Of a stretch of 64,000 nucleotides of DNA, positions 31,119 to 31,293 are shown piece by piece. A program made the position numbers and the translations under genes. Source of the DNA: Rhina ancylostomus (Eukaryota); assembly GCA_030265395.1 (NCBI GenBank), contig JARFYF010000053.1, forward strand, positions 16,200,636 to 16,264,635, in the 5' to 3' direction. The number at the start of each line of letters is the position of its first letter. Within the stretch, counting starts at the first letter, position 1. The notes beneath the pieces are model-generated. The model was not told the origin of the DNA and searched no databases. It saw only the letters and a list, made by a program, of their open reading frames with translations.

Positions 31119-31293
31119 CTTGCCAGATGATTGGATGCCCTTGATTGTGCATAATCCTACAATAAACCAGGCAGACAACAAACAAAGAGTCAATTGAGAC
31201 CACCTCCATCATTAATGTTGTTGGAGATGTTTAGCGTATTTCTATACCAAAAGTAAGTTGTAGCTGAACTCTTGTCACATTCTGGTTCTATGA
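31119..31293 (-). CDS. SLC6A17: SLC6A17 exon 5 (175 nt, frameshifted by an apparent 7-nt deletion)
   Basis: CTATCAG|(I)[33 protein letters not shown] then TGA at 31192-31190. The conserved continuation [30 protein letters not shown] is in another frame. Confidence 0.92.

Follow-up and report, generated by a model that had tools for sequence, protein, structure and literature searches.

Protein-truncating variants that segregate in diploid genomes form a general class of allele, and the SLC6A17 lesion described here, in a ray, resembles them in being a single frameshift in a gene that is otherwise conserved and that is intact in related organisms, a likeness drawn with one conspecific run only. 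For loss of the gene, the comparators are human and murine: the human recessive SLC6A17 variants G162R and P633R are missense changes and the mouse allele is an engineered exon-2 knockout, whereas the ray allele is a natural frameshift. The ray allele is like both in its predicted loss of a synaptic-vesicle glutamine/neutral amino-acid transporter, a loss that is recessive in mice. In the accessible part of the mouse study, knockout animals are described as having normal weight and basal activity with impaired fear memory, and heterozygous knockouts as equal to wild type in fear conditioning (10.1101/2022.10.25.513688). A third comparator is the unitary pseudogene, for example SERPINE3, as presented in the accessible text of that report (PMC9355568); the ray allele is like it in that the orthologous locus carries an inactivating mutation and no intact copy was seen. 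It departs from it in that relatives do not share the lesion, a second lesion is not clear, selection was not relaxed for long and the evidence comes from one individual. Among the matches listed by a literature search in which subscription journals were thinly covered, no paper described a shark or ray that had lost SLC6A17, and none dealt with loss of function in Rhinopristiformes genomes. The deletion is probably genuine and recent, a null allele of a gene that is conserved and acts in neurons and, as such, a new case of a familiar allele class.

The SLC6A17 gene and its exon 5 deletion

The window, by which we mean the whole stretch of 64,000 nucleotides that was analysed, contains eleven SLC6A17 coding exons between 50638 and 11341, located by tblastn with three cartilaginous-fish orthologs as queries and with their boundaries set on AG/GT. 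The sequence-only reading had named the gene as SLC6A17, and this identity is upheld by three lines of evidence: SLC6A17 proteins are the top named matches of the coding exons in protein similarity searches; the SNF domain (PF00209) is matched by five of the 149 ORFs scanned, each of them an SLC6A17 exon; and the window protein is nested within batoid SLC6A17 as sister to Pristis, with support of 0.92, in a FastTree phylogeny built without paralogs. The ORF scan covered 149 of the 159 window ORFs of at least 72 amino acids, and within it no neighbouring gene that could serve for synteny was detected besides SLC6A17. The exons and the features discussed below are as follows.

50353 to 50638, minus strand: exon 2, the first coding exon, 286 coding nt, ATG at 50638
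35122 to 35279, minus strand: exon 3, 158 nt, intact
32175 to 32301, minus strand: exon 4, 127 nt, intact
31119 to 31293, minus strand: exon 5, the fourth coding exon, 175 nt versus 182, AG/GT ends intact
31190 to 31192, minus strand: premature TGA, codon 225, at the 7-nt deletion junction (from the spliced translation and the relatives' contigs)
31156 to 31176, minus strand: candidate cryptic 3' splice site within exon 5 that keeps the frame of exon 4 and whose use would drop 48 residues (about 191-238)
30416 to 30526, minus strand: exon 6, 111 nt, intact
29356 to 29597, minus strand: exon 7, 242 nt, intact
25632 to 25824, minus strand: exon 8, 193 nt, intact, differing from organism B at one listed position (25776), synonymously
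22816 to 22878, minus strand: exon 9, first 63 nt only, holding G439C, with the remainder and the donor in the N gap at 22716-22815
14313 to 14472, minus strand: exon 10, 160 nt, intact
12649 to 12811, minus strand: exon 11, 163 nt, intact
11341 to 11706, minus strand: exon 12, the last coding exon, 366 nt, intact, with the normal stop

On the minus strand, positions 31201 to 31187 read GGT CTC AAT TGA CTC, with the TGA at 31192-31190, and in six-frame translation the conserved peptide switches frame in the region of 31190. Exons 2-9 spliced as they stand encode 224 residues and then a stop, where the full length is 726, so the letters and the spliced translation agree with the frameshift and stop at codon 225 that had been read from this stretch. 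Contigs from two other organisms (runs X2, X12 and X13, described below) carry seven extra letters at 31190, CATCTTC on the plus strand and GAAGATG on the minus strand, which restore an exon of 182 nt and match the sequence predicted earlier for the unbroken exon. The same letters establish the proposed TG microhomology, which is 2 nt long and over which the breakpoint can slide, at 31191-31192. The deletion may have originated by slippage or end-joining over these two nucleotides. Microhomology of at least 2 nt occurs by chance in 21% of all possible 7-nt deletions within these exons, and we therefore do not read it as evidence of any particular mechanism.

The broken site is strongly conserved. 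In the alignment across chondrichthyans that had been proposed as a check, W-K/R-M is present and intact at the position of the break in 24 of 24 orthologs; in a wider set of 167 homologs, the motif is matched by 148, each of which has three residues at the break, and missed by 19. The Pristis pectinata SLC6A17 protein (XP_051890550.1), which is equal in length to the window protein once X is put in at the break and across the gap, keeps W225-K226-M227 and G439, whereas the window lacks the seven nucleotides and has C439. Apart from these filled positions the two are 99.1% identical (673 of 679 residues compared), against 96.6-96.8% for stingrays and mobulids, and their six differences are I265V, G439C, I588V, V607A, V680I and G720S, five of them conservative. 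These identities and the place in the tree point to a rhinopristiform ray. Exact look-ups of two window peptides gave no match, and none of the 10 matches found for the exon 5 protein, at 62-76% identity, was a close one from the same species.

Several of the orthologous entries have peculiarities of their own. The Rhinoraja longicauda protein (P0002) has alanine at residue 162, which is glycine in the other chondrichthyans compared and is the position of the human pathogenic change G162R. Entries from Mustelus asterias (P0160), Chiloscyllium plagiosum (P0005) and Scyliorhinus torazame (P0009) have aberrant or missing segments and lengths of 665, 637 and 498 amino acids, respectively, which suggest faulty annotation or assembly of SLC6A17; for S. 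torazame there is an additional full-length SLC6A17 entry (P0167).

Canonical splice sites are found at every visible SLC6A17 exon end, and the visible exons show no further stop, frameshift or damaged splice site. The sequence-only reading had described all other visible exons and splice sites as intact, which holds as far as stops, frameshifts and splice sites are concerned and fails for exon 9, which is cut by a gap and carries G439C. The gap consists of 100 Ns at 22716-22815, with 44 codons and the donor falling inside it, and the G439C codon, at 22863-22861 on the minus strand, is 48 nt away from it and 8.3 kb from the deletion. Position 439 is glycine in 126 of 126 motif-matching homologs (of 167 examined) and also in B0AT1. 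Beyond the gap lies a SINE-like repeat that pairs with 26178-26246. Elsewhere in the window, an ORF at 45001-45222, in intron 2, matches the Pfam family ALKBH8_N (E=1e-7), and similar peptides occur at 600-884 and 45226-45417, which suggests that this ORF is what is left of a retroelement and not a gene.

Splice escapes and the predicted product

The stop lies 71 nt upstream of the exon 5/6 junction and seven junctions follow it, so that under the 50-55-nt rule an mRNA carrying it would be expected to undergo nonsense-mediated decay. Any 224-residue product that escaped would be without nine of the 11 hydrophobic segments, all nine being downstream of the stop (segments were detected on the Pristis protein), and would be unable to transport. 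Skipping exon 5 alone had been judged unable to restore the frame, and in silico splicing gives the same answer, with a stop after 217 residues. Two routes that the earlier reading did not mention do keep the frame, and both delete membrane segments. One is the joint skipping of exons 4 and 5, which removes both exons; the other is an acceptor at 31156, the only one of two AG sites after the stop that is in frame, which drops 48 amino acids including half of the segment at 228-246 and which a crude pyrimidine score places in the top 8.7% of 2529 AG sites. Upstream of the stop exon 5 has five GT sites, and splicing from any of them to exon 6 breaks the frame. Thus, among the GT/AG sites of exon 5 and the exon skips spliced in silico, no route that keeps a complete transporter was found, and the deletion allele is predicted to be null. 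With 224 of 726 residues ahead of the stop and no complete splice route, it would be classed by its sequence as a protein-truncating variant. The deletion junction also reads TTGAC (within 31156-31195, minus strand), about 35 nt upstream of the cryptic acceptor; we take this motif to resemble the branch-point consensus, and the deletion might strengthen the acceptor at 31156.

Related organisms and the age of the loss

Thirteen sequencing runs carry part of the stretch, and four of them were compared on 22816-31420: X1 from organism A, X2 and X13 from organism B, and X12 from organism E, all in the form of contigs, that is, assembled sequence rather than reads. Organism A accounts for one run among the thirteen, and the nine runs from organisms C and D, whose shares are 0.12-0.14, were left out. 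Individual differences were read from 40 of the 199 substitution rows and 12 of the 22 indel rows of this comparison. X2, X13 and X12 each have one contig that bridges 31190 with the seven extra letters (records 31, 15 and 23, respectively), so the deletion is absent from all three runs of these related organisms. X2 differs from the window at 138 of 5272 positions (2.6%) and X12 at 63 of 2516 (2.5%), and since both are intact at this distance, the deletion appears to have arisen after the split from relatives about 2.5% diverged. With organisms B and E intact, the lesion is shared with neither of the relatives compared, which lends a fixed loss no support. In a separate observation, very high-copy repeats at 26834-27120, 27408-27981 and 30565-30851, in introns 5 and 7, reach a summed contig depth of 10^4-10^5 in X1 and X2.

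The rate of protein change also points to a young lesion. Had the whole branch since the split from organism B evolved neutrally, about 18.7-20 amino-acid changes would be expected, against the 6 in 679 observed between the window and Pristis, and six or fewer would then have a probability of about 0.0003-0.0007, an expectation that assumes Pristis to be no closer than organism B and branch lengths to be equal. Exon 8 agrees: of its 193 nt one is listed as differing from organism B, and the change is synonymous (P=0.04 against the intron rate). With six changes where about 19-20 were expected, purifying selection appears to have held for most of the window's branch and the lesion to be recent. 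What speaks against this reading is that most of the differences from Pristis lie on the window's side, where splits of 5:0 to 6:0 give P=0.03-0.06 and a split of 5:1 gives 0.22, although in the tree the window's branch does not exceed those of other batoids in length. If zero or one change followed the loss, it dates to the last 20-30% of the branch, and if all six count it falls within 65-70%. The earlier proposal of a very recent loss of function is therefore borne out by these counts and by the near identity to Pristis.

Zygosity and alternative explanations

The run from organism A stands closest to the window. Its eight listed records cover 6162 nt with three differing letters and no gaps, the share of words is 0.78, and word depth is about 7; X1 is probably the source sample, so that its agreement is not independent support. 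This agreement does indicate that the assembly is true to these reads, which therefore probably contain the deleted form. At 31190, where X1 has a depth of 4.5, none of its contigs has the intact seven letters, and its record at the site is outside those listed. The last-bin depth is 1269 of 1531 depth-letters, which is what a record of depth 4.5 that continues past the site would give, but also allows a record ending there. We rejected depth as a test of zygosity, since 4.5 is within the scatter of both runs (4-7.8 in X1 and 3.56-8.93 in X2) and two of the eight listed X1 records are at a depth of 4.84 or less.

The explanation that we favour, with moderate confidence, is that a recent null SLC6A17 allele is heterozygous in the sequenced ray and that the haploid assembly shows the broken haplotype. 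The grades given here and below are our judgement rather than computed posteriors. The 7-nt deletion in exon 5 shifts the frame and brings in the stop at codon 225; since loss of this gene is recessive in mice, the resulting predicted null allele could linger at low frequency, only weakly selected against, as long as the other copy supplied the function. Heterozygosity is judged most likely because there is one lesion, because close relatives are intact and because constraint has continued. Since heterozygous knockout mice behave like wild type in fear conditioning, a carrier ray would be expected to be unaffected, and a recessive null can hide in carriers. The three differences between X1 and the window suggest that contigs keep one of the two alleles at heterozygous sites and that the two assemblers sometimes keep different ones, so the absence of the intact form from X1 is no proof of homozygosity.

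Homozygous loss, in which the gene would be a very young unitary pseudogene and G439C its first decay substitution, is possible, though we think it unlikely. It could take the form of a deletion fixed in the species, which is itself doubtful, or of homozygosity in this individual through inbreeding or a high allele frequency, which is more doubtful still. The window and the X1 contigs show the deleted form only, which by our estimate perhaps raises the homozygous readings 1.5-2-fold, and the state would be survivable if the normal weight and basal activity of knockout mice are a guide. G439C, which hits a glycine kept in every matching homolog and in B0AT1, could be a second damaging allele of the kind expected after loss. 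However, the X1 record across G439C has one differing letter somewhere along its length, and the run-comparison tallies give a rough likelihood ratio of 2.5-4.9 to 1 in favour of the ancestral letter at G439 in X1, which makes it more likely, if weakly so, that G439C is heterozygous or a gap-edge error rather than shared by X1. The case is weakened further by there being one clear lesion only, by purifying selection through most of the branch, and by the intact site in all chondrichthyan orthologs examined.

An assembly or library artefact, with two intact copies and a deletion produced in a low-coverage short-read assembly by an erroneous consensus or by an uncommon aberrant read, is improbable. 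The window does contain 13 N gaps, X1 is shallow, its record at 31190 could by bin arithmetic end at the breakpoint, and errors of assembly can pass for gene losses, as the accessible text of one report indicates (PMC9355568). Yet the site is covered in X1 and no intact contig appears there, the listed X1 records are gapless throughout, and the last-bin depth fits a record that continues through the site. The nearest gap is about 5 kb away, and there is no homopolymer. Because of its 13 gaps we take the assembly to be short-read, Illumina-based, and frameshift errors are far fewer in such assemblies according to the accessible part of a second report (PMC9516821). The earlier doubt that a sequencing slip could explain the deletion is thus sustained by the non-homopolymer site and by X1 contigs without the intact letters; of the three options then left side by side, consensus error is weakened, as is decay of long standing, and the contigs are compatible with a heterozygous as well as with a homozygous or fixed allele. 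A dying duplicate with an intact second SLC6A17 elsewhere in the genome is very improbable, as it has no positive support and is opposed by the lack of any X1 contig with intact exon 5 letters at 88% likeness, the single exon set that tblastn finds in the window, the full intron structure and the sister position to Pristis SLC6A17.

If, as we favour, the ray is heterozygous, the deletion would be one ordinary recessive null allele and a marker of genetic load in rays, and this ray group is under conservation concern. In that case an annotation made from the assembly would also be truncated, or the gene would be wrongly called lost. Mice without SLC6A17 have impaired memory, and in people its loss causes intellectual disability; if the deletion were instead fixed, the species would be a natural vertebrate knockout of a synaptic-vesicle glutamine transporter, with relatives 2.5% away that are intact for comparison.
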